Positions 3,087-42,890 of a stretch of 43,332 nt of DNA are shown piece after piece. The position numbers and the translations under genes were made by a program. A model generated the notes under the pieces. The model was given only the letters and a program-made list of their open reading frames with translations, searched no databases and was not told the DNA's origin. Position 1 is the stretch's first letter; every line of letters begins with the position of its first letter. The stretch lies in the sequence record DRR723986_3396; one strand, given 5' to 3'.

Positions 3087-3257
3087 AATGGTTTCCTGTT
3101 GATCGTGAGTGGGCATGACGAAAAAGCGCCATGCAGGATCTTCAGGTAACACAAGGAACGAACCCTTGTCTTTGGCGCAAGAGCCAAGATTTGGTCAATT
3201 CACGCCACTTTAAAAGTGTGCGAAAATACGCCTATACATTCTAGGGTTGTCAGCGAA

Positions 3258-25171: not shown

Positions 25172-26014
25172 ACGAGCCAACGGCTCTGGGCTCAGGTCAA
25201 CTGACGCCAACCACGGAAACTTTTCCTCTCGGTCTTTGCGCCACGACAAATAGCTCCGTTGACGAAAACTGGCAGCCCCTTCGACCCGAAACAGGATCCC
25301 TTGGGCGATTGGGTCCAACACCATGCTTTCGGGCAAATAGGCTGATCCACCATGGCGCATCAAATGCGCAAACGCCCAATCCGGGTTGCTAAAGGCGATA
25401 GCCGCCGTTTCCCCACTTGGCCATTGCTCTGCATGCTGGGATCGAAACCCCGGACCATAGTCCACATAGACATAATCCGGGTGCCACTGCACAGCAGTAC
25501 GTGGTTTGGTCGACACTTGGATCAATCGACCCACCGAGCACTCCCGATTGACAATATCCGCAGCCGACAGAGGCGCCCCCAACAGCGCCGCGTCGCTCTT
25601 TCCGCTTTGGAGCCACGATAACGCCTCTGCCCCCTGCCCTGCCCAGATTTCAACCGCAATCTCTGGATGATGCGCCCGAACGCGCGCGACCCACTCGCTG
25701 CCCATCGCAGTCCAACGCCCCGGATCACACACCAGACTGAACAACCGCGTCACCCCTTGGGGCAAACTGATGCGGGCCTGTGCATTTTGCCAACTGCGCA
25801 CGATCACCTCGGCCTGTTCCAGAAACGCATACCCCTCTTTGGTCAGCGACGCCCCCTTGCGAGACCGAACAAGCAACCGCGCGCCAAGCGCCTGCTCCAA
25901 TGCATCCAGCCGCGCCGACACAGCCGACTGCGTAATATGCAACTCTTCTGCGGCCCGGTTCAGGTTTCGCGTACGCACAACGCTTAGAAAGGTCTGGATA
26001 GCGGTGATTTTCAT
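25154..26014 (-). CDS. LysR-family transcriptional regulator
   Basis: HTH NLNRAAEELHITQSAVSARLDALE; start taken at MKITAIQTF. Confidence 0.9.
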   Translation of the reverse strand: MKITAIQTFLSVVRTRNLNRAAEELHITQSAVSARLDALEQALGARLLVRSRKGASLTKEGYAFLEQAEVIVRSWQNAQARISLPQGVTRLFSLVCDPGRWTAMGSEWVARVRAHHPEIAVEIWAGQGAEALSWLQSGKSDAALLGAPLSAADIVNRECSVGRLIQVSTKPRTAVQWHPDYVYVDYGPGFRSQHAEQWPSGETAAIAFSNPDWAFAHLMRHGGSAYLPESMVLDPIAQGILFRVEGAASFRQRSYLSWRKDREEKFPWLASVDLSPEPLARSNAGQ

Positions 26015-26030
26015 AAGCAGATAATGCAAT

Positions 26031-26075
26031 TTTCTTGACTTATAAGATAGAATAAATTCGCTTTCTTGACTTATA
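26031..26075. promoter_or_regulatory. 14-bp direct repeat in the divergent lysR/LLM promoter
   Basis: TTTCTTGACTTATA at 26031-26044 and 26062-26075, 31 bp apart. Confidence 0.6.
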
Positions 26076-26118
26076 TTTCCCTGCCACCCTGCCCCGGTCA
26101 CATCAAGGGGAACAGAAT

Positions 26119-27162
26119 ATGGAATTCAGCATTCAGCTTTCGGCGGATTACCCGGACAAATCTTATGGCGGGGACCGGGTCTATGCGGACATGCTTGATC
26201 AGGCCATTCTGGCAGATCGTTTGGGGTTTGACGCGGTGTCGATCACTGAACACCACCTGATCAATTGCCTGATGATGCCCGCACCGCTGCAATTTGCGGT
26301 CAAAATTGCCGCCCACACCAAGCGCGTGAAAATCATGACCTCGATCGTTGTGCTGCCGCTGCACGACATGCGCACCTATGCCGGGGAACTGGTGGTCGCC
26401 GACATCTTTACCGAGGGGCGGCTGATGTTGGGCGTCGGGCGCGGTGCCTTCAAATATGAACTTGAACGGCTCGGCGTCCCGATGGAACAAACCCAAGCCC
26501 GGTTCAATGAATCACTCGCCGTTCTGCAGGCCCTGCTGAGCGAGGAAGAGGTCAGCTGGGACGGTGAGTACTACAAATTCGATCCGATCACCGTGATGCC
26601 CCGCCCCGTGCGCCCCGGTGGACCGCAGATGATGATGGCGGTGCTCAACCCCGAAGGCATCTACCAATGCACCAAACGCGGGTTTCACATCCAGACGACG
26701 CCACTGGCCGGCAACCACCAGCTGCTGCTGGATCAGGTCGACGGGTTTAACCGCGCCAAAGATGAGATGGGCACCGCAGGTCAGGATCTGACCCTGTCCC
26801 TGTCACGCGCGGGTTTCGTGACTAAGAGCGAGGCCAGCCGCCAGCAGAAGATCGAGACCGCGCATCGCTATTTCAGCCGGTTTGACAACGTCTTTACCGG
26901 ACCCGGTATTGTGGACAACGGAATGGTTCGCGAACTGCCCCGCACCCAATCAATCGAAGAGTTGGCTGACATCTTGCTGATTGGCACCCCACAAGAGGTG
27001 ATCGACAAATTGGCACCCTATGCCGAGCTCGGCATCGACCGGGTCATTCTAAATCCAAACTTTGGCTGTGATGCACAGGAAACGCTCGATTCGATCCAAT
27101 GCTTCGCAGAAGAGGTCATGCCTCACTTTACCGGTCGCCCGGCCACACAAGCTGCGGAATGA
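26119..27162 (+). CDS. Luciferase-like (LLM) flavin-dependent monooxygenase
   Basis: AD.LGF......EHH, GRL.LGVGRG, G.YY.F....V.PRP, IGTP.EVI.KL, FAEEVMP.F. Confidence 0.9.
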   Translation: MEFSIQLSADYPDKSYGGDRVYADMLDQAILADRLGFDAVSITEHHLINCLMMPAPLQFAVKIAAHTKRVKIMTSIVVLPLHDMRTYAGELVVADIFTEGRLMLGVGRGAFKYELERLGVPMEQTQARFNESLAVLQALLSEEEVSWDGEYYKFDPITVMPRPVRPGGPQMMMAVLNPEGIYQCTKRGFHIQTTPLAGNHQLLLDQVDGFNRAKDEMGTAGQDLTLSLSRAGFVTKSEASRQQKIETAHRYFSRFDNVFTGPGIVDNGMVRELPRTQSIEELADILLIGTPQEVIDKLAPYAELGIDRVILNPNFGCDAQETLDSIQCFAEEVMPHFTGRPATQAAE

Positions 27163-28220: not shown

Positions 28221-28313
28221 TCTCAGAAATTGCCAATTGGCAACTTTCTGAGAGGGCGGAGCTGAGAGAGATCGCAAGCAGCCAGATTTCCACAAATTGC
28301 CAATTGGCAATTT
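28221..28313. promoter_or_regulatory. Two palindromic candidate parS sites
   Basis: TTGCCAATTGGCAA at 28230-28243 and 28297-28310, each within a longer palindrome, directly downstream of parB. Confidence 0.7.
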
Positions 28314-29284
28314 TATGATTTATGCCCGAAATGGTCGCGCATAAATATCGCCAAAGCGGCCTGTACCTGGTCTTTGGAGGCGTTGTCTGAAAATTCCAAA
28401 ACAACTTTGCGACCCTTACGGCTGCAGACAACGGCGGGTTCGCCAGTTGCCGGGCGATAGGTGACCGGCTTTGGCTTTGCAGGGGCTTCGGGTCTCATGA
28501 TTGCTTTAAATCGGGCCATCACTTCGACTGCGTCACGCAACACACCATCCGATGCCATACGCCGGGCTTCGGCCAACAGAACATCCCGCTCTTCCGGTCG
28601 TCCTAAATGCGGTTTCAATGTGCGGGCGTGCAATTCGCGAATGTCCCTAATTGATGGAAAGGCGGCAATGATGTCATCCGGCAATTTCGCCAACTGCAGA
28701 TAGCGCGACAACCACGCTTCGCTGACTTCCAACCGGGCGGCCATCGTTTTCTGTTTGCCACCGTAATACAGGGCCACCGCCTCGGCGTAGTCGCGGGCCC
28801 GTTCAAAATCCGAGATATCCTCGCGGTCCCGGTTTTCAATATCAGCCAGACGAAAGGCCTCTTCATCCGACAGTTCCCGCACATCAACCAAATAGCGGAA
28901 CTGCGGATAATTGTTGGCCCGCAACCAGCTGACAGCGAAATGACGACGTGCACCGCAGATCACCTCGTAGGGCTGATCTGCATCATCAGTCTTGCGCACG
29001 ATTGCCGGGAATTCCTGACGCCCCTGACTGCGAATACCGTCAATCAGATCCCGGCAATTGTCTTCGGTCAGCAGATCATAGGCGCGGTTGTGGCGGTCCC
29101 ACATTCGGCAATTCTCTGGGTCGATCCAGCGCAGTGATTTTTCTTCGATGTCACCCGACAACCGTTCCGCCACGCGTGTTGATCTGTTTAAAAACCGAGC
29201 ACCGCCGCGATCAGCTTTGGCCGGGGTGGATTTATCCAGACCGCTCAGAACATCGTCAAAAATCGCATCGTGCTTCTTGCTCAT
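28313..29284 (-). CDS. parB: ParB/RepB/Spo0J partition protein
   Basis: L...I...G.QE.PAIVR, YEVICGARRH CTPase motif, EN..R.D.S..E, HTH MAARLEVSEAWLSRYL. Confidence 0.93.
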   Translation of the reverse strand: MSKKHDAIFDDVLSGLDKSTPAKADRGGARFLNRSTRVAERLSGDIEEKSLRWIDPENCRMWDRHNRAYDLLTEDNCRDLIDGIRSQGRQEFPAIVRKTDDADQPYEVICGARRHFAVSWLRANNYPQFRYLVDVRELSDEEAFRLADIENRDREDISDFERARDYAEAVALYYGGKQKTMAARLEVSEAWLSRYLQLAKLPDDIIAAFPSIRDIRELHARTLKPHLGRPEERDVLLAEARRMASDGVLRDAVEVMARFKAIMRPEAPAKPKPVTYRPATGEPAVVCSRKGRKVVLEFSDNASKDQVQAALAIFMRDHFGHKS

Positions 29285-30483
29285 AACACACCTTCCTTGC
29301 GCAAATCTGCGTGGTGACTGGGCCAGGTTTTCCGCATCAACAGTTCAACTTCTCGACCAACCGCGTCCAAATAGGCACGGCACCGTTTGTGGGTTTCGGT
29401 GCGCGTTGCTGGGCCCGTGATTTCATATACCGTGCTCAGGTTCGCGGTTGCGTTGTCGATTTCCGCACTGTCTTTCAGAACAGCCGATAACATATCCTGC
29501 GGGAACACGGCGTCCATCATTCGTTTAATCGCCACATGCGCAGATTTGTTATCATTCATCTTTGTCGCAAGGATTTTGACAAACGAATAGTCCCGTTCAC
29601 CGCCATGCTGTGCCAGCTCGCCCAATGTTGCGCCCATCATCTTGAGGAAATGCGCAGTCGAGCCAAAATCGATATTGTTGGGTGGGGCAGGGATCACCAT
29701 CGCATTTGCAGCGCGCAACACAGAGAGGGAAATCATACCCAGAGCCGGGGGCGGGTCCAGCAGGATGACGTCAAACTGATCCGAAATCGTGGCGATGCCA
29801 TCGCGGAGCCGATCAAGGATAAAGGTTTGATCACGGACCATGCGCGCGGCAAATTCATATTCAGCATCGTAAAGCCCCAGATTGGCGGGGATCATCGCGA
29901 TGCCGGGCCAATAAGTGGCGCGCAAAGCATAGTGGAGGCTGGAGGGCCCCCCGTGTTGGAAGAACGGATACAGGGTGTCTTCGGTCTCATCCACGTCGAT
30001 ATCGGGGTTCAAACCGAAAATGGATGTGGTTGAAGCCTGACTGTCACAATCAATCACGCAGACCCTATAACCGCGCAGGGCCATGAATTGGGCAAGATGG
30101 GTTGTTACAGTGGATTTTCCGACACCGCCTTTGAAGGACTGAACAGATAAAACCAAGGGGGGATCTTCGGGCGCGCGGTGGGGTAGGGTGCCGAATACCT
30201 CGCGCATGCGATTGACGTCTGCCAATGAATATCCGGTTCTACGCCCCGTTTTAGAGTCTTTTTCTGGCTCAGGAAGACGCCCGTCTGCTTCGGCGTCCCG
30301 GATTAGTTTTTCTGAGCGTCCGACCATTTCAGCGGCAGAGCGGACATTGAACCGCAGCCCAAGTTGTTTGCTGGCGTCAGGGGCAAAGACACGGTCCCGC
30401 AAGCGGTCCATAACAGTGCTGGCGCGATCTGAGAGATGCTCGATCTCATCCAGTCCGATAGGGGGGAGCGGGGTAGGGGTCAT
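29281..30483 (-). CDS. parA: ParA partition ATPase (type Ia, N-terminal HTH)
   Basis: KGGVGKST deviant Walker A, IDCDSQAS, LDPPPALG; ATGA overlap with parB. Confidence 0.95.
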   Translation of the reverse strand: MTPTPLPPIGLDEIEHLSDRASTVMDRLRDRVFAPDASKQLGLRFNVRSAAEMVGRSEKLIRDAEADGRLPEPEKDSKTGRRTGYSLADVNRMREVFGTLPHRAPEDPPLVLSVQSFKGGVGKSTVTTHLAQFMALRGYRVCVIDCDSQASTTSIFGLNPDIDVDETEDTLYPFFQHGGPSSLHYALRATYWPGIAMIPANLGLYDAEYEFAARMVRDQTFILDRLRDGIATISDQFDVILLDPPPALGMISLSVLRAANAMVIPAPPNNIDFGSTAHFLKMMGATLGELAQHGGERDYSFVKILATKMNDNKSAHVAIKRMMDAVFPQDMLSAVLKDSAEIDNATANLSTVYEITGPATRTETHKRCRAYLDAVGREVELLMRKTWPSHHADLRKEGVL

Positions 30484-31016: not shown

Positions 31017-31090
31017 GGACCGGGCGGGGTTATCTGCTTATACTTACATCAATAAAACTACAAAAGTAAGAATTGAGTGTTGGGCAAGAC

Positions 31091-32128
31091 ATGTCAAAGA
31101 AACCTTATCGCACCTTGGACGCGCGACCAAATGCAGAAAGCCTGATCAAACCCGGAGAGCTGGTGGATGTGATCGAGGTGACGCCGCTGACGTTAAATGA
31201 CAGGCGTATCTATAACCAATTGCTGGAAAACGCGTGGGATGCGATCGACAAACCGGTCAGCCATGTGATTTCTAAGTCGATGCTGCGCGGATCACATAAC
31301 TCCAACGATAGGGTAGGGGAGTCGATTGAGCGGCTGATGTCGGCCATTGTAAAGATCGAAGTCACCTGGGATGGGGAACCGGCGGTCGAGCGAGTGCAGC
31401 TATTGGGTGGGAACATCGAAACCACGCGGCAGGACGGGTTGATTGAATATGAAATTCCAGCGCGATTGCGGAAAATCATCTCTAACTCGACCATTTTCGC
31501 CCGTTTGCAGCGCGAGATCATGTTTGCGCTGAGTTCGAAATACGCACTGACGCTGTATGAAATCGTGCAAAAGCGGGGCAATTTGCGCTGGCGGTCGTCT
31601 GAAAAATTCTCAATCGAAGACCTGCGCGGGATTCTGGGCGTGCCTAAAGGCAAGTTGACCAGTTGGAGCAACCTGAACCTGCGCGCGATCACCCCAGCCA
31701 TGGCCGAAGTGAATGCCTTGTCCGATTACATGGTGGCCATCGATCCGATCAAAACCGGGCGGCGGGTGACGCATGTGGAATTGCGGTGGTGGAAAAAAGA
31801 CGGCGAGGGGCAGGGCGCGGCTGAGCGGGCGTTGCAGTTTTCGTCGGTGGGCCGCAAGACGCGCAGTATGGGGCAAGGGGAAGAGGTGATTGCGCCAACG
31901 CCACCCGTGGCCCCACCGGTCAAACCGCGCCCGGCCTGGCTGGACAAACAAGGCACGGCGTTGAAAACGGAAACCTATGAAACGGTGCGGATGCGGCATC
32001 CGGGGTATGACATTTATTATGTCGAAGGGCAGTGGCGGGATTGGGCGGCGGGCAAAGAACCGGCCAAGGATCCAGATCGTGCTTTTTTAGCCTTTTTTCG
32101 TACATATGCCGAAGCGAACCCAATTTAG
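31091..32128 (+). CDS. Plasmid replication initiator, Rep_3 family (RepB-type)
   Basis: LTL.DRR.YN.LL, LSSKYAL.LYE, LR.ILGV..GK...W..L..RAI.PA..EVN, K.GRRV..V; divergent from parAB across the iterons. Confidence 0.9.
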   Translation: MSKKPYRTLDARPNAESLIKPGELVDVIEVTPLTLNDRRIYNQLLENAWDAIDKPVSHVISKSMLRGSHNSNDRVGESIERLMSAIVKIEVTWDGEPAVERVQLLGGNIETTRQDGLIEYEIPARLRKIISNSTIFARLQREIMFALSSKYALTLYEIVQKRGNLRWRSSEKFSIEDLRGILGVPKGKLTSWSNLNLRAITPAMAEVNALSDYMVAIDPIKTGRRVTHVELRWWKKDGEGQGAAERALQFSSVGRKTRSMGQGEEVIAPTPPVAPPVKPRPAWLDKQGTALKTETYETVRMRHPGYDIYYVEGQWRDWAAGKEPAKDPDRAFLAFFRTYAEANPI

Positions 32129-32150: not shown

Positions 32151-33089
32151 TCAGTTTTGGCTTGGGGCCCACGGCTGTGTGCCTTGCAATGCTTCTAAAA
32201 GTCCGGAAACGGCGCGTGACTTAATAGTGCCGTTTACCAAGGCCGTTTCTGGTGTTTGTTGTGTGATAGCAAAAAAGGAATGCGGTAACGGCAGGCCCAT
32301 TGTGGTGGGAAGGACAAGTTGGTCCGTATCCAGAAGCTCTTGAAACAGTCGTTTGGGAACAAGTGCGATCCCGCCGCCCTGAGCGGCCAACGTGGCAGCG
32401 ACGGCTGATCCACCAACCCGCATGCCCGCGCGCGGATCGGGGTTGCGGATGTTTTCTGCAGCTCGAAACCACGCCGCCCAAGTGGGGTACGAGGCATAGC
32501 TTTCGCCCCAATCGGTGTGGATGAAGTGACTGTCTGAAAGCGATGTTACCCCCCCATCCGCGAGGTGATTTTTGGCGAACTCTTTTGAACACATTGGATA
32601 GGCCACATCGGTAAACAGCGGTGTGGCGGTGAGTTGGGGATACATGTGGCTTTCATAGGTCAGGCGAATGTCCACTTGGGTTCGCACCAGATCAACGGGA
32701 TCAGCTTCGATCCGCAACTCAACCCCGATGTCTGGAAAGCGTTTGCGAAAATGGATCAAGGCGGGCGCGACCCATTGGACGGACAGGGATTGAATGGTGC
32801 TGAGGACAATGCTGGACCGGGCGTCGTTTTCGAGCAGGTGATCTGAGATCGAGGAAATTTCTGTCAGGGCTGTTGAGATCGACGGGTAAAGCTGTCGGCC
32901 CGCGTCGGTCAGGTGCAATTCGTTGTGCGTGCGCAGAAACAGCTTTTTGCCAAAGAATTCCTCGGCCTTGCGCACCTGCATGCTGACGGCTGGCGGGGAA
33001 ACGCCCAGTTCAACGGCGGCGGCGGTAAAGCCACCTAGCCGTACCGTCGCTTCAAAGGCTTTGAGCGGGTTCAAGGGAGGCAGGCGCAT
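32151..33089 (-). CDS. LysR regulator, GcvA-like subfamily
   Basis: MRLPPLNPLKAFEA.VR.G.FT.AA.ELGVS..AVS.QV...E; W..P.L..F; W..WF. Confidence 0.92.
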   Translation of the reverse strand: MRLPPLNPLKAFEATVRLGGFTAAAVELGVSPPAVSMQVRKAEEFFGKKLFLRTHNELHLTDAGRQLYPSISTALTEISSISDHLLENDARSSIVLSTIQSLSVQWVAPALIHFRKRFPDIGVELRIEADPVDLVRTQVDIRLTYESHMYPQLTATPLFTDVAYPMCSKEFAKNHLADGGVTSLSDSHFIHTDWGESYASYPTWAAWFRAAENIRNPDPRAGMRVGGSAVAATLAAQGGGIALVPKRLFQELLDTDQLVLPTTMGLPLPHSFFAITQQTPETALVNGTIKSRAVSGLLEALQGTQPWAPSQN

Positions 33090-33196
33090 CGCATCATCCC
33101 GGTCAGGCAAAGAAAAACTGTGCCGAGACATACAATTTGTGGATTTGAAAAGCCAGCAACCTCGGGCCACTGTCGGGTCAAAGGAAGGGATTGCGC

Positions 33197-34204
33197 ATGG
33201 CTAAGATGGAAATTGAATATCTGGGAAAACCAGAGATCGACAAATTGGCGCTGACCAATGATGAAATTCTGTCAGCGGTGGAACAAGGGCTGATCGCTGC
33301 GGGGCAAGGCAGAACGGTGATCGAGCCACGTATGCATCTGACCCCTGATCCGGCGTTCAACGGGCATTTCAATGTGCTGCGTGGCTATGTGGAGCCTCTG
33401 GGCTATGCTGGGGTCAAAGTTGTTGGGGACTTTGTCGACAATTACAAACGCGGGCTGCCCTCAGAGTTGGCGTTGCTGAACCTGTTCTGTCCCCGGACCG
33501 GTGCGCCGCTCGCAGTGATTGACGCTGCTGGGATTACGGACATGCGCACCGGGGCTTTGACCGCGCTGGGGGCGAAATGGCTGGGGCCAAAGAACCCGAA
33601 AATCCTTGGCCATCTCGGGGCACGTGGAACGTCGTATTGGAATGTGCGCTTGTTGGATCACCTGTTTGATTTCGACGAAATCCGCGTGCATTCCCGCCGT
33701 CCTGAAAGCCGCAATGCCTTTGGCGAGAAGCTGAGCCAGGATCTGGGCAAGAAGGTCATCGTGACGGAGGATTGGGAAAGCTGTCTGTCGGGTGCAGATA
33801 TCATGATTGAAGCCACGCGGCTGAACGAACCAACTCCGATGTTTGACCGCTCTTGGGTGAAAAAAGGTAGCTTTGTTGTACCGTATGGCACCATGAGCGC
33901 CTTGCCGTTGAATTTTGTCGATGGGTTCGACAAGTTTGTGATGGATGATCTGGGACAGATGCGGGCCGGGCACTTAGGGGCACTGCGGCCGCATATTGAT
34001 GCAGGGAAGATCACCGAAGAAAGTTTCTATGCAGAGATCGGAGAGATCGCGTGCGGCGCGAAGCCCGGGCGGGAATCTGACGATGAAACCATCCTGTTCT
34101 GGCATCGGGGCATGTCGACCGGGGACATCGCATTGGGAGCTAAGATTTTGGACAAAGCGCGCGACATGGGGATTACACAGAATCTGCTGTATCGTGATGA
34201 ATGA
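33197..34204 (+). CDS. Ornithine cyclodeaminase/mu-crystallin family protein
   Basis: GVKVV.DF.DN...GLP, TG.PLA, ITDMRTGA, EIGEI..G.KPGR....E..LF...G....D.A; AAGGAAGGGA RBS. Confidence 0.9.
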   Translation: MAKMEIEYLGKPEIDKLALTNDEILSAVEQGLIAAGQGRTVIEPRMHLTPDPAFNGHFNVLRGYVEPLGYAGVKVVGDFVDNYKRGLPSELALLNLFCPRTGAPLAVIDAAGITDMRTGALTALGAKWLGPKNPKILGHLGARGTSYWNVRLLDHLFDFDEIRVHSRRPESRNAFGEKLSQDLGKKVIVTEDWESCLSGADIMIEATRLNEPTPMFDRSWVKKGSFVVPYGTMSALPLNFVDGFDKFVMDDLGQMRAGHLGALRPHIDAGKITEESFYAEIGEIACGAKPGRESDDETILFWHRGMSTGDIALGAKILDKARDMGITQNLLYRDE

Positions 34205-35717
34205 TCCGGTTTTGCATCTGGATGGCAGCTCGCTCGATCTGGGCGTCCTGTACCGCGCCGCGCATGGGACACCGCGGATTGCCCTAAGCCAGAGCGGTCT
34301 GGATGCGATGGCAGAGAGTCACGCTATGGTGCAGCAGGCGATCCGGGACAGGGTACCGGTCTATGGGGTGACAACTGGATTGGGCGCGAGGTCGACCGAA
34401 GTTCTGGATGAAACCGCATTGGCGGATTTCTCAGTTCAGACGCTGCGGGGCAGGGCGCATGCCATCGGACCAGAGGAACGTCGCGAGGTGATACGCGCGG
34501 GTCTGATTGTGCGGTTGAACACCTTGCTGTGCGGGTACAGCGGCGCGCGTCCAGAGTTGGCATTGCATCTTGCCAAATGCCTTGAGGCAGATGTGACACC
34601 TGTCTGTGGCCAAATCGGATCAATTGGCGCGGCGGATCTGGTTTTGAACGCAACTGTGGGCTTGGCTTTGATCGGCGAAGGTCAGATGCGGCATGGGGCG
34701 GGGGCGATTGGTCCAAGTGCGGAGGTGATGGCCGAACAAGGGATCACATCGCTTGTTCTGGCCCCGCGCGAGGGGTTGGCATTGGCCAATCACACAGGCG
34801 CTGTGGCGGGGGCCGCGGCTTTGGCAGTGTATGAGGCGCAAATAACGTTTCAAGCGGCTCAGACAGCCGCTGCGTTGTCTGTTGAGGGGTTTAGGGCCAA
34901 TCTTGGCCCATTGGATGCGGCGATATTGGCGGTTAAACCTCATCCCGGCCAGTTGAAGGCGGCGGCGGGACTGAGAGATCGGTTGGCAGGCAGCGTTTTG
35001 GCTGACACGACGCAGGCCCGGCGGTTGCAGGATCCGCTGAGTTTTCGCAACGTTGTGCAGATCCATGGTACGACGCAGAGCGCTTTGGATCAGGCGGCGG
35101 CGAGTATTGAGATTGAGATCAACAGTGCCAGCGACAATCCGGTGGCGTTGGTTGAAACCGGCAAGATCTTGTCGAGTGGGGCCTATTTCACCTCGGAAAT
35201 CAGCAGTGTTGTGGAAACGCTGAGCCGAAGCTTTGTGGCGCTGGCGTTTGCGCAATTGGCCCGGGTTTCCAAGCTGTTGAATCCTGTTTTCAGTGAATTG
35301 CCAAGCTTTCTAGCCAAACCAAACAGCGCCTCCAACGGGTTTGCGCCGGTGATGAAACCGGCGGAAGCCTTGGTGATGGAATTGGCGCATCAGGCGCAAC
35401 CGGTTCCGATTTGGCCCAGTGTGAACGCCAATGGAGTTGAGGATTGCATGACCGGGTCCCCGGCGGCGGTCAAAGCGTTGATGCAGGTCGTTGACCGGCT
35501 GCGTCGTCTGACGGCGATCGAGATGGTGGTGGCGGGGCAGGCGGTGGCGTTGCGCGAGTGCGAACCGGGTGTGGCGCCATATTTGAACACCGTCCTGGGA
35601 CAGGTGCGCAGCCTGTCACGGGCGTTTGAACAGGACCGGCCTTTGGGCGGCGACATCGAGGCGTTAGCAGATCATATTCGAGACTGGGGTTTGGGCGTAT
35701 TTGAGGTCATGGATTAG
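34197..35717 (+). CDS. Histidine/aromatic ammonia-lyase homologue lacking the MIO triad
   Basis: VYGVTTG.G, GSIGAADL (canonical GSVGASGDL), REGLAL.N, QDPLSFR, NSASDNP, VED; start overlaps the OCD stop. Confidence 0.9.
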   Translation: MNDPVLHLDGSSLDLGVLYRAAHGTPRIALSQSGLDAMAESHAMVQQAIRDRVPVYGVTTGLGARSTEVLDETALADFSVQTLRGRAHAIGPEERREVIRAGLIVRLNTLLCGYSGARPELALHLAKCLEADVTPVCGQIGSIGAADLVLNATVGLALIGEGQMRHGAGAIGPSAEVMAEQGITSLVLAPREGLALANHTGAVAGAAALAVYEAQITFQAAQTAAALSVEGFRANLGPLDAAILAVKPHPGQLKAAAGLRDRLAGSVLADTTQARRLQDPLSFRNVVQIHGTTQSALDQAAASIEIEINSASDNPVALVETGKILSSGAYFTSEISSVVETLSRSFVALAFAQLARVSKLLNPVFSELPSFLAKPNSASNGFAPVMKPAEALVMELAHQAQPVPIWPSVNANGVEDCMTGSPAAVKALMQVVDRLRRLTAIEMVVAGQAVALRECEPGVAPYLNTVLGQVRSLSRAFEQDRPLGGDIEALADHIRDWGLGVFEVMD

Positions 35718-35981: not shown

Positions 35982-37055
35982 TCAGAGGCTGAGGGCCATT
36001 TGTTCGGCGTTTACAGTCAGTTCCGCGATCATTTTCTCTGACCAACTCAGCGCGCCAGAGGTCAGCAGGAAAACCTCGGGGACGACCACCCATTCTGCGA
36101 TCCATACACCGCCCGAACGTTCATGTTGATGCAAGGTCAGTTCCCCGACTTGTTCAGATCGCTGCCGTCCGAGGCGGCCGACGGCTTCGGCGAATTCGCT
36201 GGCCCGTTGGTTCCGCTTGTGATGCATCGACGAGGACACGCCTTTCCCTGTGACATGGCATTCAGACACTTCGGCAATGTCAGAGGACGACAGCAGATTG
36301 ATGTTGTGGGCGATCTTGCAGAGGGTCGCGCAGAGCGCGCCAAGGGCGGTCACAATATCTGACAGGCCGTCGCGTGCGTTTTGCCAATGTGGGTCGATCT
36401 GGCCAAGACCCAGAGCGTCTGCAACGCCGGTTTTGACGGCTTGGCCGGTGTCCCCGTCATATTTTGCCAGATCTCCGAGCGGGCCGCCGATCTGCACATT
36501 CAGGCCGCGTGTGGCGGCGTCTTGCAGGGCCTGTTCCCGGCGCAGCAATTCGGCGCGCCACACGTGCAGTTTCGTGGCCAGCGACATGGGAACCGCGTGC
36601 TGCCCGTTGGTGCGCCCGATCATCTGCGTGTCCTGCTGTTCGCTGATATGGCGATCCAGCTGGGTGATCAGTCGCCCGATGGTGTGGGTGATGTTGTCCA
36701 GGCTCAGCTTCATCTGCATTGCCAGGGCTGTGTCCAGAATGTCCTGTGTGGTGCTGTTGTAGTGAGCATAGGGGGCAAGGTTGGGGCCAATATGGGCGCG
36801 TATCTGGGCGACCAGATCAACGATTGGGCGGCCAACCATCGTCATGGCATCTCGCATCTGGTCTTGGTCCAGATGCGAGGCAGAAAAGGTGGCGATCTTG
36901 TCGGCGGCCTCTTGCGGGATCAGCCCGGCTTGGGCTTGAACCTTCGCAAGGGTTTGTTCGACTTTGATCCAAGCCGAAAGCGTTGAGTTTTCTGACCAGA
37001 TCCGACGCATTTCTACATCGCTAAAGCAATCTTGTGAGAGGTGCCAATTAAGCAT
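35982..37055 (-). CDS. Short fumarase/aspartase-superfamily lyase (PcaB/adenylosuccinate-lyase-like, 357 aa)
   Basis: H..ST.QDILDT, MIGRT..QHA.P, SSSMHHKRN signature, QHERSG..W.AEW; start overlaps the tctA stop. Confidence 0.85.
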   Translation of the reverse strand: MLNWHLSQDCFSDVEMRRIWSENSTLSAWIKVEQTLAKVQAQAGLIPQEAADKIATFSASHLDQDQMRDAMTMVGRPIVDLVAQIRAHIGPNLAPYAHYNSTTQDILDTALAMQMKLSLDNITHTIGRLITQLDRHISEQQDTQMIGRTNGQHAVPMSLATKLHVWRAELLRREQALQDAATRGLNVQIGGPLGDLAKYDGDTGQAVKTGVADALGLGQIDPHWQNARDGLSDIVTALGALCATLCKIAHNINLLSSSDIAEVSECHVTGKGVSSSMHHKRNQRASEFAEAVGRLGRQRSEQVGELTLHQHERSGGVWIAEWVVVPEVFLLTSGALSWSEKMIAELTVNAEQMALSL

Positions 37056-38565
37056 CGCCAAGACCCCCTTGGGCAATCTTTTGCTCGCGCAGGATGGTGC
37101 GAATGCGGAACGCCATGGCAGCAAGGCCAATCGCCAAGAACAGTGCGGCGATGGGGCGTTCGATGAAGACAAGTGCGCCGCCATCAGACATCAGCATGGA
37201 CTGGCGGAATGTTTCTTCGGCGCCTTTGGCGAGCACAAAAGAGATGACAAAGGCCGCGATGTTGAAATCGTATTTGCGCATCAGCCAGCCGACGAACCCG
37301 GCCACTGTCATGACGGTGACGTCAAACATGGACCCACGGGCGGAATAAGCGGCGACAAACGAGGTCAGGAAGATCATCGGGTAAAGCACGTTTGTCGGGA
37401 TTTTCAGAATGATCCGGGCGACTTGTGTTGCACCGAAATACCCGATCAACCCGTAGGCAAGAATGCCCAACATGCCACAAGCAAAGAGTCTGTAGATGAG
37501 TTCTTTGTCGGTCAGGAACAGGGTCGGGCCGACCTGAATGCCGTGGATCAGGAACACGCCCAACAGGATAGCGCCAATGGTCGATCCGGGGATGCCAAGC
37601 GTGAGCAGGGGGGCCATTGAGGGGCCAGAGACCGCGTTGTTGGCGGCTTCGGGCGCGGCGACACCTTCGAGGGCGCCCTTGCCCCATTTTTCGGGGTTTT
37701 TGGCGCGGCGTTTGCCTTCGCCGTAAGAGATGAAGGCGGCAATTGCAGAACCCAGACCGGGCAGGACACCGATAAAGGCCCCGATGACACCACCGCGCAG
37801 GGCGTGGGGCAGGCAGGGTTTGTATTCATCCCATGTCAGGGTGTTGTCGTCGCCTACTTGGTCGTTGACTTCGATCTCTGCGTTCTTGGCTTTTTTGCGC
37901 TCTTCGAGCTGCGCGAAGACTTCGCCCAAGACAAAGACGCCAATCATCAGCGGCACAAGGCCGATGCCGTTGGACAGGTCAAAAGACCCGAAGGTATAGC
38001 GTTCTTGGCTGGAAATTGGATCAAGACCGACCATGGCGACCAGAATACCGATGAAGGCAGAGGCCAGACCTTTCAGGATGGATTTCCCGATCACCGATCC
38101 GATCACCACAAAGGCGGCAAAGTAGATGGCAAAGGTTTCGGGTGGGCCAAGCTTTAACGCCAATGCGGCAATGAAACCAACCCCGACAACCAACATGATA
38201 TCGCCCATGAAATCGCCGATCACCGAGGAAATGGTGGCGACCTTCATCGCTTTGCCAGCCTTGCCGCTTTTGGCGAGGGGATAGCCGTCAAGCTGTGTCG
38301 CGGCAGAGGCGGCGGTGCCGGGTGTGTTGAACAGGATGGCGGCGATTGATCCGCCGTAGCGGCCGGATTTGCCGATCACATAGAGAAAGGCGAGGGCGAA
38401 CAGGGGTTCCATGTAAAAGGTGATGGGCAGCAACATCGCAATCGCGGCTGAGGCCGTTAGACCGGGAATTGCGCCAACAATCATCCCGACAACAGCTGCC
38501 AAAAGGATGGCGGCCAAGAGCATGGGGTCGGAGATGACAGAAAGAAGTGCGGGAAAAATATCCAT
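37048..38565 (-). CDS. tctA: TTT large membrane subunit TctA (second copy)
   Basis: Same TctA motifs as 23047-24561, with long identical peptide stretches. Confidence 0.95.
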   Translation of the reverse strand: MDIFPALLSVISDPMLLAAILLAAVVGMIVGAIPGLTASAAIAMLLPITFYMEPLFALAFLYVIGKSGRYGGSIAAILFNTPGTAASAATQLDGYPLAKSGKAGKAMKVATISSVIGDFMGDIMLVVGVGFIAALALKLGPPETFAIYFAAFVVIGSVIGKSILKGLASAFIGILVAMVGLDPISSQERYTFGSFDLSNGIGLVPLMIGVFVLGEVFAQLEERKKAKNAEIEVNDQVGDDNTLTWDEYKPCLPHALRGGVIGAFIGVLPGLGSAIAAFISYGEGKRRAKNPEKWGKGALEGVAAPEAANNAVSGPSMAPLLTLGIPGSTIGAILLGVFLIHGIQVGPTLFLTDKELIYRLFACGMLGILAYGLIGYFGATQVARIILKIPTNVLYPMIFLTSFVAAYSARGSMFDVTVMTVAGFVGWLMRKYDFNIAAFVISFVLAKGAEETFRQSMLMSDGGALVFIERPIAALFLAIGLAAMAFRIRTILREQKIAQGGLGDA

Positions 38566-38570
38566 GTCTC

Positions 38571-39041
38571 TTACCCCTGGATCGCATCAAGCAGGTCAAA
38601 CACTTCGCCAAATGGCGGAAAGACCCCGAGAAGTTCAAAGAAAATGATGTGATAGATCAGCGGGCAAAGGACGACCGAAACGGCCAGACCAATTTTGCTG
38701 CGCACGCCGAACATATACAGCACAACGGGCGCTGTTATGGCCGTGGGTAGCACATAGCCGAACCAGCGGATGGAGTGTTGATAGAGGAGGGCAATCGCAA
38801 ACAGTGCGAGGATCTCGAGCACCGCGTTGTTCTCCGCGCTCTGCGACTTGTCGTTTGGTGTTGGGCTGCGAAGCCCGCCCATGATCATGAATGCTGCGAT
38901 GATTAACAGCCCAAGCCCGGCGCCAAATGGCACAACCCCAGCCCAGGTTTCATTGTCGGCGGCGGCTGGTACGTTCCAGACCCCGATGATTGCGAATAGG
39001 CCGAGTGCAAAAAGCACCACACCTTCGGATAACGCGCGCAT
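38571..39041 (-). CDS. tctB: TTT small membrane subunit TctB (second copy)
   Basis: Four hydrophobic helices; C-terminus IFFELLGVFPP.GE.FDLLD.IQG shared with the first copy. Confidence 0.88.
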   Translation of the reverse strand: MRALSEGVVLFALGLFAIIGVWNVPAAADNETWAGVVPFGAGLGLLIIAAFMIMGGLRSPTPNDKSQSAENNAVLEILALFAIALLYQHSIRWFGYVLPTAITAPVVLYMFGVRSKIGLAVSVVLCPLIYHIIFFELLGVFPPFGEVFDLLDAIQG

Positions 39042-39105
39042 AATTTGCCCCTCCCACGGTCAAAAAGTTGGGGCCAACGCGGACTGCGCTGACCCCTGTG
39101 AGTGA

Positions 39106-40065
39106 TTATTTGCTCAAGCCTGCAACGAGTGGGGCTGCGTCGGCCTTCATCGCGGTCAGGCCCGCTTTTGCATCTGCGCCATTGGCGTAAACAGGGCCGG
39201 TGCCGCGTTTTGCCAAAAGCTCGGCAAATTCAGGCTTTGCGGCGATCTCTGCCAGCGCGGCTTCCATGGCTGTGATGACCTCGGATGGGGTGCCTTTGGG
39301 GGCAAAGACGATGACGGGTGAGGACACGGCTGCGAAGGGAATGCCCAATTCACCAAATGCGGGAACTTTGGTCATGATGCCATCGCGTTCGGCGCTGTTG
39401 ACGGCGAGCGCGCGCAGGTTGTCTTCGAAGCCAGCTAATTGCTGAACGCCTAAGAAGCCGAAATCAGCTTGCGATCCGATCAATGCTGCCCGTGTTGGGC
39501 CGCCCCCTTTGAACGGAACATCCTGGGCTTCGATGTTGTTGTTGGCCAAGAAGCCGAGGCCACCCACATAGTGGAACCCGCCACGACCTGAATGCGCCCA
39601 ACGCAGTGAGCCGGGGTTGGCCTGTGCCGCATCGATGACATCCTGAACAGTTTGGAAGGGACTGTCTTTGGGCACCATCAGCGAGGTCTGCAGCTTGCCG
39701 ACCTGCGCGACGAACTCGAACGAGTCCAGTGCATCGATTTTGGTGTCCCGTGTCATGGTGGATAGCAGGAATGAGCCACCGGATGTCATCATCATGGTGT
39801 AGCCATCGGGACGTGCGCCAACCACAGAGTTTGCACCGTTCAAGCCGCCGGAACCGGGCTTGTTCACTACAACGACGGGTACATCCAGCACATCCGCTGC
39901 GGCGGCTGAAATGGCGCGGGCATAGGCATCTGTGCCACCGCCAGCTTTGTAGGGCACGACAAGGTTAATGGGGCGCTTTGGCCAATCAGCCGCGATGGAT
40001 GCGGTTGCGGTGACAAGTACTGCAACGCCTGCGATCGCGGCTGAGATGAGTGATCTGCGTTTCAT
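39106..40065 (-). CDS. tctC: TTT substrate-binding protein TctC (second copy)
   Basis: Signal peptide; WP.RPI.LVVPYKAGGGTD, VNKPGSGG, PDGYT, VPFKGG; GGGAGG RBS. Confidence 0.93.
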   Translation of the reverse strand: MKRRSLISAAIAGVAVLVTATASIAADWPKRPINLVVPYKAGGGTDAYARAISAAAADVLDVPVVVVNKPGSGGLNGANSVVGARPDGYTMMMTSGGSFLLSTMTRDTKIDALDSFEFVAQVGKLQTSLMVPKDSPFQTVQDVIDAAQANPGSLRWAHSGRGGFHYVGGLGFLANNNIEAQDVPFKGGGPTRAALIGSQADFGFLGVQQLAGFEDNLRALAVNSAERDGIMTKVPAFGELGIPFAAVSSPVIVFAPKGTPSEVITAMEAALAEIAAKPEFAELLAKRGTGPVYANGADAKAGLTAMKADAAPLVAGLSK

Positions 40066-40114
40066 GGTGGTCCTCCCTGAATATCTTGGGCGCCAAGTTA
40101 ACAGAGCAAATAGG

Positions 40115-40159
40115 TTGCGAAAAATGCAAAGATGTTTAGATTAGTTGCATGATTTGCAA
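40115..40159. promoter_or_regulatory. Pair of candidate LysR sites
   Basis: TTGCG-N5-TGCAA (40115-40129) and TTGCA-N5-TGCAA (40145-40159), both T-N11-A, 30 bp apart in the divergent promoter. Confidence 0.65.
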
Positions 40160-40175
40160 GTGAAGGGGTGTTGTT

Positions 40176-41096
40176 ATGAACATCAAAGCCTTACGGGCCT
40201 TTCGCGCGACCCTGTCAGAGGGATCTTTGGCGGCGGCAGGCAAAATATTGAACTTATCGCAGCCTGCCGTCAGCCGATTGATCTCGGGGCTTGAAGGGGA
40301 ATTGCGCCTGACGCTGTTCGATCGGTCGGGGCGCAATTTGGTGCCGACACCAGAGGGCACCGCCTTTTACCGAGAGGCGGGGCGCATTCTGGACAATCTA
40401 GATGAGGTTCCCAAAATCGCCGCTGAAATTCGTGCGGGGCGCACCGAGAACCTGCGCATTGTTGCGATGCCACGGATTGCGCAGGCGTTGGCCTCGCCTG
40501 CGGTGGCGCGGTTTGTGCAGGAATTCCCCGACGTCGGCGTCAGTCTGGATGTGCGGGCTCGTCGTGAGGCCAGCAAGTGGCTGGCGGGGCGCGAGTATGA
40601 CATCGGTATCGGGGCCTTGCCTGTGGATCACCCCGAAATCCGGACCGAGCTGTTGTTGCGGGTTCGGGCGCAAGCGATTGTTCCAGCCGATCATCCGTTG
40701 GCAGAGGCCGAGGCCCTATCGGTTGATGATCTGGCAGAGGTGCCCATCATCCGTTTGATGCACGGGCTTTTGTTGCGCGATCAGTTGGATGATATGTTCC
40801 AATCTGCTGGCATTGTTCCGAAACATCAATGCGAGGTGGCCTCTTCTTCTTTGGCCTGTGCGCTGGTTGCGGATGGGGGTGGGGTGACGATTGCAGATGA
40901 ATTGGTTGCGGCCCAAGTGGACCAGTCCCGCATTCGTATCATTCCGATTACACCCGAACGCTGGATGTCGTTTGGATTGCTGTTTCCAGTTAATGTCGAG
41001 CCAACGGACGCCTCTGAACGGTTTGTTCGCGCCTTGAAATCGCATATTGCGGCACTGGCGGCGGATAGCACAACAATAACGCTTCGTGTGGATTAA
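40176..41096 (+). CDS. LysR-family transcriptional regulator
   Basis: HTH GSLAAAGKILNLSQPAVSRLISGLE; paralogous to 20590-21483. Confidence 0.92.
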   Translation: MNIKALRAFRATLSEGSLAAAGKILNLSQPAVSRLISGLEGELRLTLFDRSGRNLVPTPEGTAFYREAGRILDNLDEVPKIAAEIRAGRTENLRIVAMPRIAQALASPAVARFVQEFPDVGVSLDVRARREASKWLAGREYDIGIGALPVDHPEIRTELLLRVRAQAIVPADHPLAEAEALSVDDLAEVPIIRLMHGLLLRDQLDDMFQSAGIVPKHQCEVASSSLACALVADGGGVTIADELVAAQVDQSRIRIIPITPERWMSFGLLFPVNVEPTDASERFVRALKSHIAALAADSTTITLRVD

Positions 41097-41256: not shown

Positions 41257-41680
41257 GGGTATGCCAAGTTGTTTTCGTCGGTGTGTAAGAGGATGAGCTA
41301 CCGCGATTAAGCAACCATTTCATCGGTGCACTCGGCCCGCAGGATGAAGGCATCTGAATGGGCATGTCGGTAAGATGTGGCGGCCAGTGTATAGCCGCGG
41401 GTAGAAAGATGGTATTAATTTCGCCATGAGCTGCAAGGAACTTTTGGGTTTGGCGCGGCGATTTGAACCGCCCCATGATTTTCTAGCGCTTTCGGGTTTG
41501 TCGGTGCGACCTTTCAATCGCACTGTTGAGGCCTTTATGCGCACGATGGTCTGCGCCAGGTGCCAAATCCCGGATTGGTTTGATGTAACTCAGCAGCTTG
41601 TCCGTGATCATAGCAGGAGGTGTGTCGAAGCGGGTAATCAGCCTTTGCCGGAATCGTAGTGCTGCTTTCTTGCGACCAAT
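41257..41680 (-). mobile_element. IS6-family remnant (3' part of the transposase, inactivated)
   Basis: KAALRF..., ITDKL.SY, H...KGLN.AIE.SH...RKR*KIMGRFKS (in-frame TAG at 41483-41485), later frameshift; possible terminal IR near 41257. Confidence 0.8.
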
Positions 41681-42890
41681 GAATGATCTCTGCCGGTGCT
41701 CCCTCGAAGACATAAGGATTCAGGATTGCGCGATTGGCGAGGACAGTGCGGTCGGCCGTGTTCAACCGCGCTTCTTCGGCAACCTCGCCAAAGCCCGCAT
41801 GGATTTCTTCGACCTGTCTGATGATGGTCTCGATCGCATCTTTTTCGGAAATTCCGAAGTTTGGAGCGGCTTCAATGGCCAGTGCCACCCGGCTTTGCCG
41901 TGAATTTCCGCGCACGCGAATGGCCTGGTTCGCCTCGTGACCGAGACGGGGGCGAGGCTCGATGTCATAGGCCGGGGTCAGGGTCAGAAGCTCTCCATCC
42001 CAGAACGCCGCGTGATTGCGCGCATGATCGTCGGTGTTGCCGATGAGGATGTTGAAGACCATCCGCCGAAAAAGCTCTGCCTGAGTTTCTCTGGGGTCTG
42101 TTCCGCCACGCCGCAAAATCCCCGCGAGATCTTCGTAACTGCCGTAATAGCTGCGGGCTTCGTCGAGGCCGAGTAGAGTCAGGGCTGACACCATGTGCCG
42201 ACGTGTCCATCCGCCGGCCTTTGGTTCGCGATCAAAAAGCTCGACCAGCAAGACGTCTTTGTCGCGCACCGACACTAGCTCGGCTTTCGCCACACGAATA
42301 CCGACGCGTGCTGCCAGCCTGAGGCCCAAAAGCTCGGCACCGACAATCTTGTGAGGATCGCGGCTGGACGGAAACTTTGCAATGAGCTTGCGGCGCCCGT
42401 CCGTCAGCTGGGCCTTGGGGCGCGCGCCACCTATCGATGTGCCATGGTTCATTGCTTCGTCGAGATCGGGCGGCAGCGGCGTGCCTTCCTCGATCAACCG
42501 TGCCCCCTCCATCATGGCCGCAAGCGTCGCCTCCTGAGACAGGCGCGGGACATAGGTTGTTGGGGAGGTCTGGAAATCCAGGGCCCCAGTGCGGTCCGAG
42601 CCGGAGAGCAGCATGTAGCTCAGCTCGTCGATGTCCGCGGTGTCCATGTCGGGATCGCGGCGTCCGGTGACATGGGTCAGGATCACCCGGCGGCCCCAAT
42701 TGTCTGGTGCAGCGTCGCGCAGGCATCCCGCGATGGTGTGTGGCGCCGCAGGGAGATGCACGCCTTTCTTGAGCGGAAGCTCAGGCGCGAAAAGCGAAAT
42801 TGCGTCGTCACGCTCGAGATAGCTGCGACCATAGGTGAAACGGTAAATGCCATCCACCAGGTCGATCCTCAGTCTAAATTCACTAGCCAA
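41535..42890 (-). pseudogene. hipA: HipA-family kinase toxin, apparently 5'-truncated, 3' end fused to the IS6 remnant
   Basis: FTYG.SYL, DAAPD.WGR, SIGGARPKA, IAKFP, NTDDHARN, LTPAYD; no hipB upstream; TTG start lies in unrelated AT-richer DNA. Confidence 0.75.

Follow-up and report, generated by a model that had tools for sequence, protein, structure and literature searches.

An MIO-less ammonia-lyase homologue with a switched specificity residue, paired with an OCD-family enzyme, as a candidate catabolic unit

The stretch DRR723986_3396 (43,332 nucleotides (nt); hereafter the window, meaning its whole length) contains, at positions 32151-35717, three genes: one for a LysR-family regulator, one for an enzyme of the ornithine cyclodeaminase (OCD)/mu-crystallin family, and one for a homologue of the aromatic amino acid lyases. 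The lyase (34197-35717, plus strand; 506 amino acids; PF00221, 362 bits) lacks the residues that form the 4-methylidene-imidazole-5-one (MIO) cofactor, belongs to a class defined by Arg86 and Lys387, and is strictly coupled to the OCD enzyme. Judging from comparisons of sequences and from a predicted structure, we give about even weight to the proposal that it cleaves a C-N bond without a cofactor, in an N-alkylated (probably trimethylated) amino acid whose side chain offers an acceptor or an anionic group, and that an NADP-type redox step by the OCD enzyme is coupled to this cleavage. At the same, joint confidence, we propose that the OCD and lyase genes form one catabolic unit of two enzymes with coupled translation, which on this replicon lies under a divergent LysR of the GcvA-like kind.

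The loop that forms MIO in other members of the fold is shorter in the lyase and lacks the Ala-Ser-Gly triad. The initial annotation, made from the sequence alone, had reported this, and we agree: positions 34617-34640 (plus strand, as are all of the lyase positions below) translate to GSIGAADL (G141-L148), and HMMER alignment to the P. putida HutH structures (1gkm/1b8f) placed a one-residue gap facing GSVGASGDL. The same alignments agreed with its assignments of the other residues. The catalytic base Tyr56 (34362-34364; Y53 of P. putida HutH) is kept, Arg86 (34452-34454) occupies the position of the imidazole-binding His (H83 of HutH), and Leu281 replaces Tyr280 in the stretch Q278-D-P-L281-S-F-R284 (35028-35048), which includes the carboxylate-binding Gln and Arg and is identical to the QDPLSFR of ergothionase. 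Q278 and R284 are kept relative to HutH, as is Glu415 (35439-35441; E414 of HutH), which is conserved across the whole fold family. Lys387 (35355-35357) aligns with K384 of T. denticola ergothionase, a residue described in a preprint as essential and as binding the thiolate (bioRxiv 10.64898/2026.04.22.720169).

These features were properties of a family and not of one sequence. In the 120 best homologues (48-94% identity), the loop was always eight residues long and never contained ASG, and Y56, R86, Q278, R284, K387, E415, and D416 were invariant. A strain-specific lesion, raised at the outset as a way in which the idea might fail, is thus excluded, as is a chance change, since both the short loop and R86 were found in 120/120 homologues. 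Residue 281 was hydrophobic (L, I, M, or V) in 116 of the 120. The middle two residues of the loop varied (AA, AG, VA, PS, GG, AS, and others), so the earlier statement that the loop has no Ser is right for this lyase and wrong for the family as a whole, in which the constant property is a middle of two residues. About 60 positions were invariant among 31 lyase sequences at 47-94% identity, and an AlphaFold (AF2) model of the lyase had a predicted local distance difference test (pLDDT) score of 90.3.

The lyase is not a histidase by sequence criteria, as had been proposed. It is without the MIO triad, has Arg at the specificity position, and scored 311.5 bits against the hutH equivalog TIGR01225, for which the cut-off is 539.15. 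The absence of urocanase and other hut genes from the window was borne out by tblastn: HutU, HutI, HutF, HutC, and a urocanase-like protein from related loci gave no match to the window at E <= 1e-3. The genome of the closest relative (lyase 94% identical) also encodes a true HutH (601 bits).

By its features, the lyase belongs to an MIO-less branch of the fold that has already been described. The loop of T. denticola ergothionase (6s7j) aligned with that of the lyase without a gap (SSIGEGDI versus GSIGAADL), and in a Foldseek search with the AlphaFold model 6s7j ranked first (template modelling (TM) score of 0.92), narrowly above the HutH structures. Because the lyase and ergothionase agree in loop length, in QDPLSFR, and in the essential Lys, we see no new loss of MIO here. 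What sets the lyase apart is Arg86 together with the OCD pairing. His is present at the position of Arg86 in HutH, in ergothionase, and, according to the preprints on it, in hercynine lyase. By sequence, then, the side-chain pocket of the lyase appears to differ from that of every characterised member.

The Arg86/Lys387 class is large. A scan with one genome per species found 463 stretches that encode relatives of the lyase, and in a full search 6609 of 1.84 billion cluster representatives matched it at E <= 0.001. Among the best 150 of these representatives (clusters at 50% identity), 67 full-length sequences, including all of the first 41, had Arg86, Lys387, and the two-residue loop. We compared these 67 Arg/Lys representatives with 14 that have His at position 86 and keep the Lys (His/Lys) and with 29 MIO enzymes. 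The Arg/Lys and His/Lys sequences had in common, relative to the MIO enzymes, the two-residue loop, a hydrophobic residue 281, R275, and K387. The one sharp difference between them was R86 (100% versus 0%), with minor differences at L62, N235, and L335. A quick maximum-likelihood tree (IQ-TREE) of 62 sequences, with some long branches and with experimentally characterised sequences not among them, provisionally placed the MIO enzymes together with a GS[AV]GYL class on one side (support of 98) and the Arg/Lys and His/Lys classes on the other, with His/Lys sequences nested twice within Arg/Lys.

Two other kinds of MIO-less PF00221 protein were also seen. The first, the GS[AV]GYL class, has a still shorter loop (GSAGYL or GSVGYL), His86, and Tyr387 (L108, L109, L111, L112, L116, and L130); it forms a well-supported clade beside true HutH and is often encoded near hutH (for example, G469:C4:27280-28653, with hutH at 25639-27018). 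We know of no characterised member. The second (L138-L142; for example, L140:4956-6548) is a His86/Lys387 lyase with Val at 198, found in genomes that also bear the Mesorhizobium-type Arg/Lys lyase. Its neighbours encode a Zn-dependent dehydrogenase, a class III aminotransferase, an aldehyde dehydrogenase, and a major facilitator superfamily transporter, and do not make up an ergothioneine cluster.

The coupling of the lyase and OCD genes is strict. We scored an OCD orthologue in the flanks of a lyase gene when it had at least 55% identity over at least 250 amino acids. In the window's own, marine, clade an orthologue was present in 47 of 80 loci, within 150 nt of the lyase gene in 39, and directly upstream on the same strand in 31. 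Of the 33 loci without it, 16 have truncated flanks and 17 have full 8-kb flanks; the OCD subfamily was encoded elsewhere (60-74% identity) in 15/15 genomes checked from these 17. In a sister clade found throughout Mesorhizobium, whose lyases are 33-39% identical, the OCD gene was directly upstream in 80/80 loci. Conservation of an OCD-lyase-LysR linkage had been put forward as a check on the initial annotation, and for its OCD-lyase part the support is very strong.

The two genes also occurred together across genomes. Among 251 Rhodobacteraceae genomes, the lyase (E <= 1e-100) was present in five, and an OCD protein of at least 75% identity was present in exactly the same five, encoded next to it. 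Seven further Rhodobacteraceae genomes encode an OCD protein that is 59-68% identical, and six of the seven have a more divergent Arg86/Lys387 lyase alongside. In a sample of 301 Pseudomonadota genomes, we fetched all 25 PF00221 matches below 512 bits (excluding the relative's own) and 15 higher-scoring ones. An OCD gene was within 3.2 kb of the Arg-type lyases in 7/7 cases and within 5 kb of the His-type or other lyases in 0/7. Eight of the 301 genomes had both genes, one had only the OCD gene, none had only the lyase gene, and 292 had neither (Fisher p of 6e-15, a value that overstates the independence of the genomes, as six of the eight with both genes appear to be Mesorhizobium).

No third gene was conserved with the pair. 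We tallied Pfam families in the two flanking genes on each side at 78 related loci (141 and 143 proteins, three very long proteins having been dropped from the second set), and these tallies, together with BLAST clustering of the flanking open reading frames (ORFs), revealed no conserved third gene and no recurrent transporter or enzyme. The commonest flanking families were LysR (13/141 and 3/143 proteins), amidase (8), class I/II aminotransferase (8), SDR (2 and 7), and EamA (6), followed by FA_desaturase (4 and 3), glutaminase (3), class III aminotransferase (3), and urocanase (2). The regulator, which had been taken as part of the system, does not belong to the conserved unit: a LysR gene of at least 45% identity was divergently adjacent in only 12 of the 80 loci, all from close Rhodobacteraceae.

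The OCD protein (33197-34204, plus strand; 335 amino acids) suggests a reductase-type partner that uses NADP(H). It matched PF02423 over its whole length (residues 21-325; 157 bits, E of 5.4e-46) and scored far below the cut-offs of the characterised equivalogs that we compared (AlaDH, OCD, EutC, SbnB, BhcD, and Pyr2C reductase). The top NCBIfam match was archaeal alanine dehydrogenase (AlaDH; 160.8 bits against a cut-off of 409), and BhcD (NF045643) gave 70 bits against a cut-off of 500. The best PDB matches were archaeal AlaDH (1vll/1omo; 130 bits), Pyr2C reductase (6t3e), and SbnB (4m54; 94 bits), and iminosuccinate reductase (6rqa) was also among the relatives. After the second Rossmann strand there is an invariant His-Ser-Arg-Arg, of which S168-R169-R170 (invariant in 32 sequences) aligned with the Asp of A. 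fulgidus AlaDH. An Asp at this position marks the NAD-dependent relatives, and Ser-Arg-Arg points to NADP(H); it is this replacement that, by the general behaviour of Rossmann folds, suggests the cofactor and the reductase-type role. The subfamily is unusually conserved (58-99% identity, compared with 33-94% for the lyases) and almost confined to genomes with an Arg-type lyase.

A mechanism that would account for the active site begins with Gln278 and Arg284 gripping the substrate carboxylate, while Tyr56 would abstract the beta-proton. An already cationic N-alkylated ammonium group, most likely trimethylammonium, would then leave C-alpha without help from MIO, and the products would be a 2-enoate and an amine. 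The space that MIO fills in other enzymes is bordered by a short loop of small residues and by a hydrophobic side chain at 281, an arrangement identical to that of the enzymes that release trimethylamine, and the authors of one preprint state that every characterised MIO-deficient lyase needs a trimethylamino group (10.64898/2026.04.22.720169). The three known substrates of such lyases, ergothioneine, hercynine, and N(pi)-methyl-hercynine, are all of the histidine type, according to two preprints (10.1101/2025.08.13.670108; 10.64898/2026.04.22.720169). In the lyase described here, Arg replaces the imidazole-binding His beside the ergothionase-type Lys387, and so the two residues would be expected to face a side chain with a hydrogen-bond acceptor or an anionic group (a carboxylate, a sulfinate or sulfonate, or a thiolate), not a plain imidazole. 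Either before or after the elimination, the same molecule would probably undergo an NADP(H)-dependent amine/imine redox step catalysed by the OCD enzyme.

Several observations weigh against elimination of trimethylamine from a betaine. The most serious is the partner itself: because the 2-enoate left by loss of trimethylamine from a simple betaine has no alpha-nitrogen, the role of the OCD enzyme after such a step is unexplained. In addition, the carboxylate-binding Asn, N198, varies among the 120 homologues of the clade (82 have N, 26 S, and 12 G), and the Pfam tallies at the 78 loci revealed no conserved betaine transporter or methylamine-handling gene next to the pair. The key branch of the tree, which groups Arg/Lys with His/Lys, had a support of only 75, which is weak, and the predominance of apparent Mesorhizobium genomes limits what the co-occurrence count can contribute.

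The unexplained need of a betaine lyase for an OCD enzyme leads us to keep, as a substantial if unlikely alternative, an E1cB-type elimination (unimolecular, through the conjugate base) on a dicarboxylic amino acid that is not a betaine, for example a 3- or N-substituted aspartate or glutamate. By analogy with BhcB and BhcD (beta-hydroxyaspartate dehydratase and iminosuccinate reductase), Arg86 and Lys387 would stabilise an aci-carboxylate, so that neither MIO nor a quaternary nitrogen would be needed, and the OCD enzyme would reduce the enamine or imine product. This would give the OCD enzyme a role with precedent, as the imine reductases 6rqa, 6t3e, and BhcD are among its relatives, and its NADP-type Ser-Arg-Arg fits a reductase. 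The lack of conserved neighbours is as would be expected of a two-gene route that ends in a common amino acid and needs no more genes, and the two cationic residues of the side-chain pocket are invariant (120/120). However, the side of the pocket that holds the leaving group does not differ from that of the trimethylamine-releasing class, with the ergothionase-like hydrophobic residue 281 (116/120), and no acid is apparent that might donate a proton to a departing hydroxyl or amine. The BhcD match is far under its cut-off, and no member of the aromatic amino acid lyase fold is known to us to use an E1cB route.

We consider it quite improbable that the lyase acts on an opine-like compound, either splitting a secondary amine into a 2-enoate and an amino acid or forming it from an amine and an enoate, with the OCD enzyme as an AlaDH- or SbnB-like dehydrogenase of the amino acid, whether released or linked. 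Archaeal AlaDH and SbnB are indeed the closest relatives of the OCD protein with solved structures, and its closest ESM Atlas clusters bear automatic SbnB-type names, which we take as a lead only; the NCBIfam scores, all far under their cut-offs, speak against reading function from these matches. At eight loci without an adjacent OCD gene, the lyase gene is flanked by genes for an amidase and a class I/II aminotransferase, an arrangement that is compatible with handling of an amino group in the route. However, the genomes with this arrangement still encode the OCD protein elsewhere (5/5), and the aminotransferase is not shown to be a replacement for it. A protonated secondary amine would also be a worse leaving group than trimethylamine, and no acid catalyst is seen in the pocket.

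An ordinary ergothionase, converting ergothioneine to thiourocanate and trimethylamine, is a very improbable identity for the lyase. The two-residue loop, QDPLSFR, Lys387, Glu415, and the Tyr base are as in 6s7j, the top fold match, but the imidazole-binding His is Arg in all 120 homologues. The one lyase that we found in a canonical ergothioneine cluster (L143, with genes for urocanase-like, S-Me-THD-like, M20 peptidase, and amidohydrolase proteins) is of the His/Lys type, which argues that true ergothionases are His-type and that the Arg-type enzymes are something else. Genes for thiourocanate hydratase, desulfurase, hydantoinase, and carbamoyl-glutamate hydrolase were absent from the window and from the flanks of the 78 related loci, and to our knowledge an OCD enzyme has no place in the published five-step ergothioneine pathway. 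Finally, a decayed, non-catalytic HutH paralogue, which the missing cofactor, the two changed HutH active-site residues, and the true HutH of the closest relative might suggest, is scarcely credible given the roughly 60 invariant positions, the 463 encoding stretches, the 67 full-length clusters, the intact reading frames, and the strict coupling to a partner gene.

The pair may by itself make up a complete pathway of two steps, acting on a widespread metabolite so far unrecognised as a bacterial substrate, with an OCD reaction, on the substrate or product of the lyase, of a type new to that family. We put this forward tentatively, at somewhat less than even confidence; the candidates would be the betaine of an acidic amino acid or an oxidised or 5-thio histidine betaine. 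Such a pathway would reveal that trimethylamine or another small amine arises from a previously unknown biological source in sponge symbioses and the legume rhizosphere as well as in the ocean. The MIO-less lyases are a recently opened field, and the Arg/Lys class outsizes the known types, keeping the catalytic machinery and altering the residue that reads the imidazole. The lyase-OCD pair is part of the core gene set in Mesorhizobium and recurs in marine Rhodobacteraceae and in lineages associated with sponges. Once the substrate is identified, two large subfamilies that are now orphans would both gain a function, and an unrecognised flux of nitrogen or methylamine could come to light; Mesorhizobium offers a tractable genetic system for the work.

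The layout of the three genes indicates close coupling of the two enzymes. The ATG of the lyase gene (34197) overlaps the stop codon of the OCD gene (34202-34204), so that 8 nt are shared. A 573-amino-acid lyase ORF beginning at TTG 33996 was rejected as an artefact of the ORF listing, and ATG 34197 was taken as the start. Likewise, the listing begins the OCD gene at TTG 33191, and we take ATG 33197, which is preceded at 8 nt by an AGGAAGG ribosome-binding site. The LysR gene (32151-33089, minus strand) is divergent from the OCD-lyase operon. Its product has the HTH_1 (PF00126) and LysR_substrate (PF03466) domains and scored 189.9 bits against GcvA (NF008352; cut-off of 288). The ORF was listed as extending to GTG 33170, and ATG 33089 (MRLPPLNPLK...) is the probable start. 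This leaves a divergent intergenic region of 107 bp (33090-33196) in which we noted a small dyad, ACAA-T-TTGT, at about 33132-33140. A consensus scan for promoters and terminators gave no signal exceeding the shuffled expectation, including in this region.

Other genes near the pair were considered and set aside. A gene for a membrane FA_desaturase-like protein lies near it in 7 of the 80 loci and in Mesorhizobium, distant lineages (for example, L067:7073-8005 and L152:8651-9745). The marine protein weakly matched GntB, a hydroxylase of free L-arginine (55.8 bits against a cut-off of 380), and two copies that we compared were 29% identical. The gene is too inconsistent across loci to be a member of the unit. 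The hut genes that lie beside the pair at four loci (L036, L067, L069, and L079) are too rare to hint at a substrate derived from histidine, and Arg86 speaks against a plain imidazole.

The surroundings of the three genes look like those of a plasmid or chromid. Immediately upstream of the LysR gene are genes for a ParB-like protein (28313-29284), a ParA-like protein (29281-30483), and a Rep3-type initiator (31073-32128). In the closest relative (L001:4703-5926), the equivalent position is occupied by a RepC-type initiator (PF03428/PF11800), indicating that the same cargo adjoins different replication modules. Downstream, convergent on the minus strand, are genes for a pcaB-like Lyase_1 protein and for TctA, TctB, and TctC (35982-41096), with a second, divergent LysR gene at 40176-41096. 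The pcaB-like protein scored 251.6 bits against a cut-off of 355.75, and because its ORF as listed overlaps that of TctA by 137 nt, its true start is probably further downstream. We treat this group as a separate module and not as part of the lyase-OCD unit; it is common to the closest relative only and has its own LysR. With another TctA gene (449.9 bits) about 13 kb away at 23047-24561, the replicon bears at least two tripartite tricarboxylate-type transporters. A gene for a HipA-like kinase (41535-42890; HipA_C and Couple_hipA domains) fits a plasmid context, since its product is presumably a toxin with a paired antitoxin. A 906-amino-acid ORF on the minus strand (432-3152) matched no Pfam family at E <= 1e-5.

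Comparison with known systems separates what is new from what is not. Our literature search, the coverage of which stopped short of the preprints' supplementary alignments (Fig. S5) and the ergothionase structure paper, found no paper linking an MIO-less lyase with an OCD enzyme. With HutH (P. putida 1b8f; TIGR01225) the lyase has in common the fold, the Tyr base, the carboxylate-binding Gln and Arg, and the Glu. It differs in being without Ala-Ser-Gly, in the changes of His83 to Arg and Tyr280 to Leu, in its score below the cut-off, and in the absence of hut genes from the window. The likeness to ergothionase (Td_ETL, 6s7j; also S. oneidensis SO_3057) is greater, extending from the fold, the absence of MIO, loop length, and QDPLSFR to the Tyr base, the Gln/Arg carboxylate clamp, the Glu, and the essential Lys. 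However, the lyase has Arg for the imidazole-binding His, is only about 26-30% identical to ergothionase and no nearer to it than to HutH (166 versus 165-180 bits), and has an obligate OCD partner instead of neighbouring genes for thiourocanate hydratase or hydantoinase.

The hercynine trimethylammonia-lyase Swoo_3913 and the N(pi)-methyl-hercynine lyase SO_3299, as described in two preprints (10.1101/2025.08.13.670108; 10.64898/2026.04.22.720169), are likewise MIO-deficient PF00221 proteins that eliminate trimethylammonium, and they indicate that the MIO-less branch has diversified in side-chain specificity. According to the same sources, they keep the His and have Asn or Gln for the Lys, whereas the lyase in the window keeps the Lys and has Arg for the His. 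They are periplasmic and have flavocytochrome c reductases as partners in anaerobic respiration; the lyase of the window has no evident signal peptide and is paired with an OCD enzyme. That partner, in turn, has the PF02423 fold of the OCD/mu-crystallin enzymes (1omo, 6t3e, 4m54, and 6rqa) and their Arg/Lys/Arg carboxylate-binding positions (from an alignment to 1vll), and differs from them in scoring below every NCBIfam equivalog cut-off and in having Ser-Arg-Arg for the NAD-type Asp. The fold and the type of chemistry are thus familiar, unlike the substrate, the specificity class, and the obligate pairing with an OCD enzyme.

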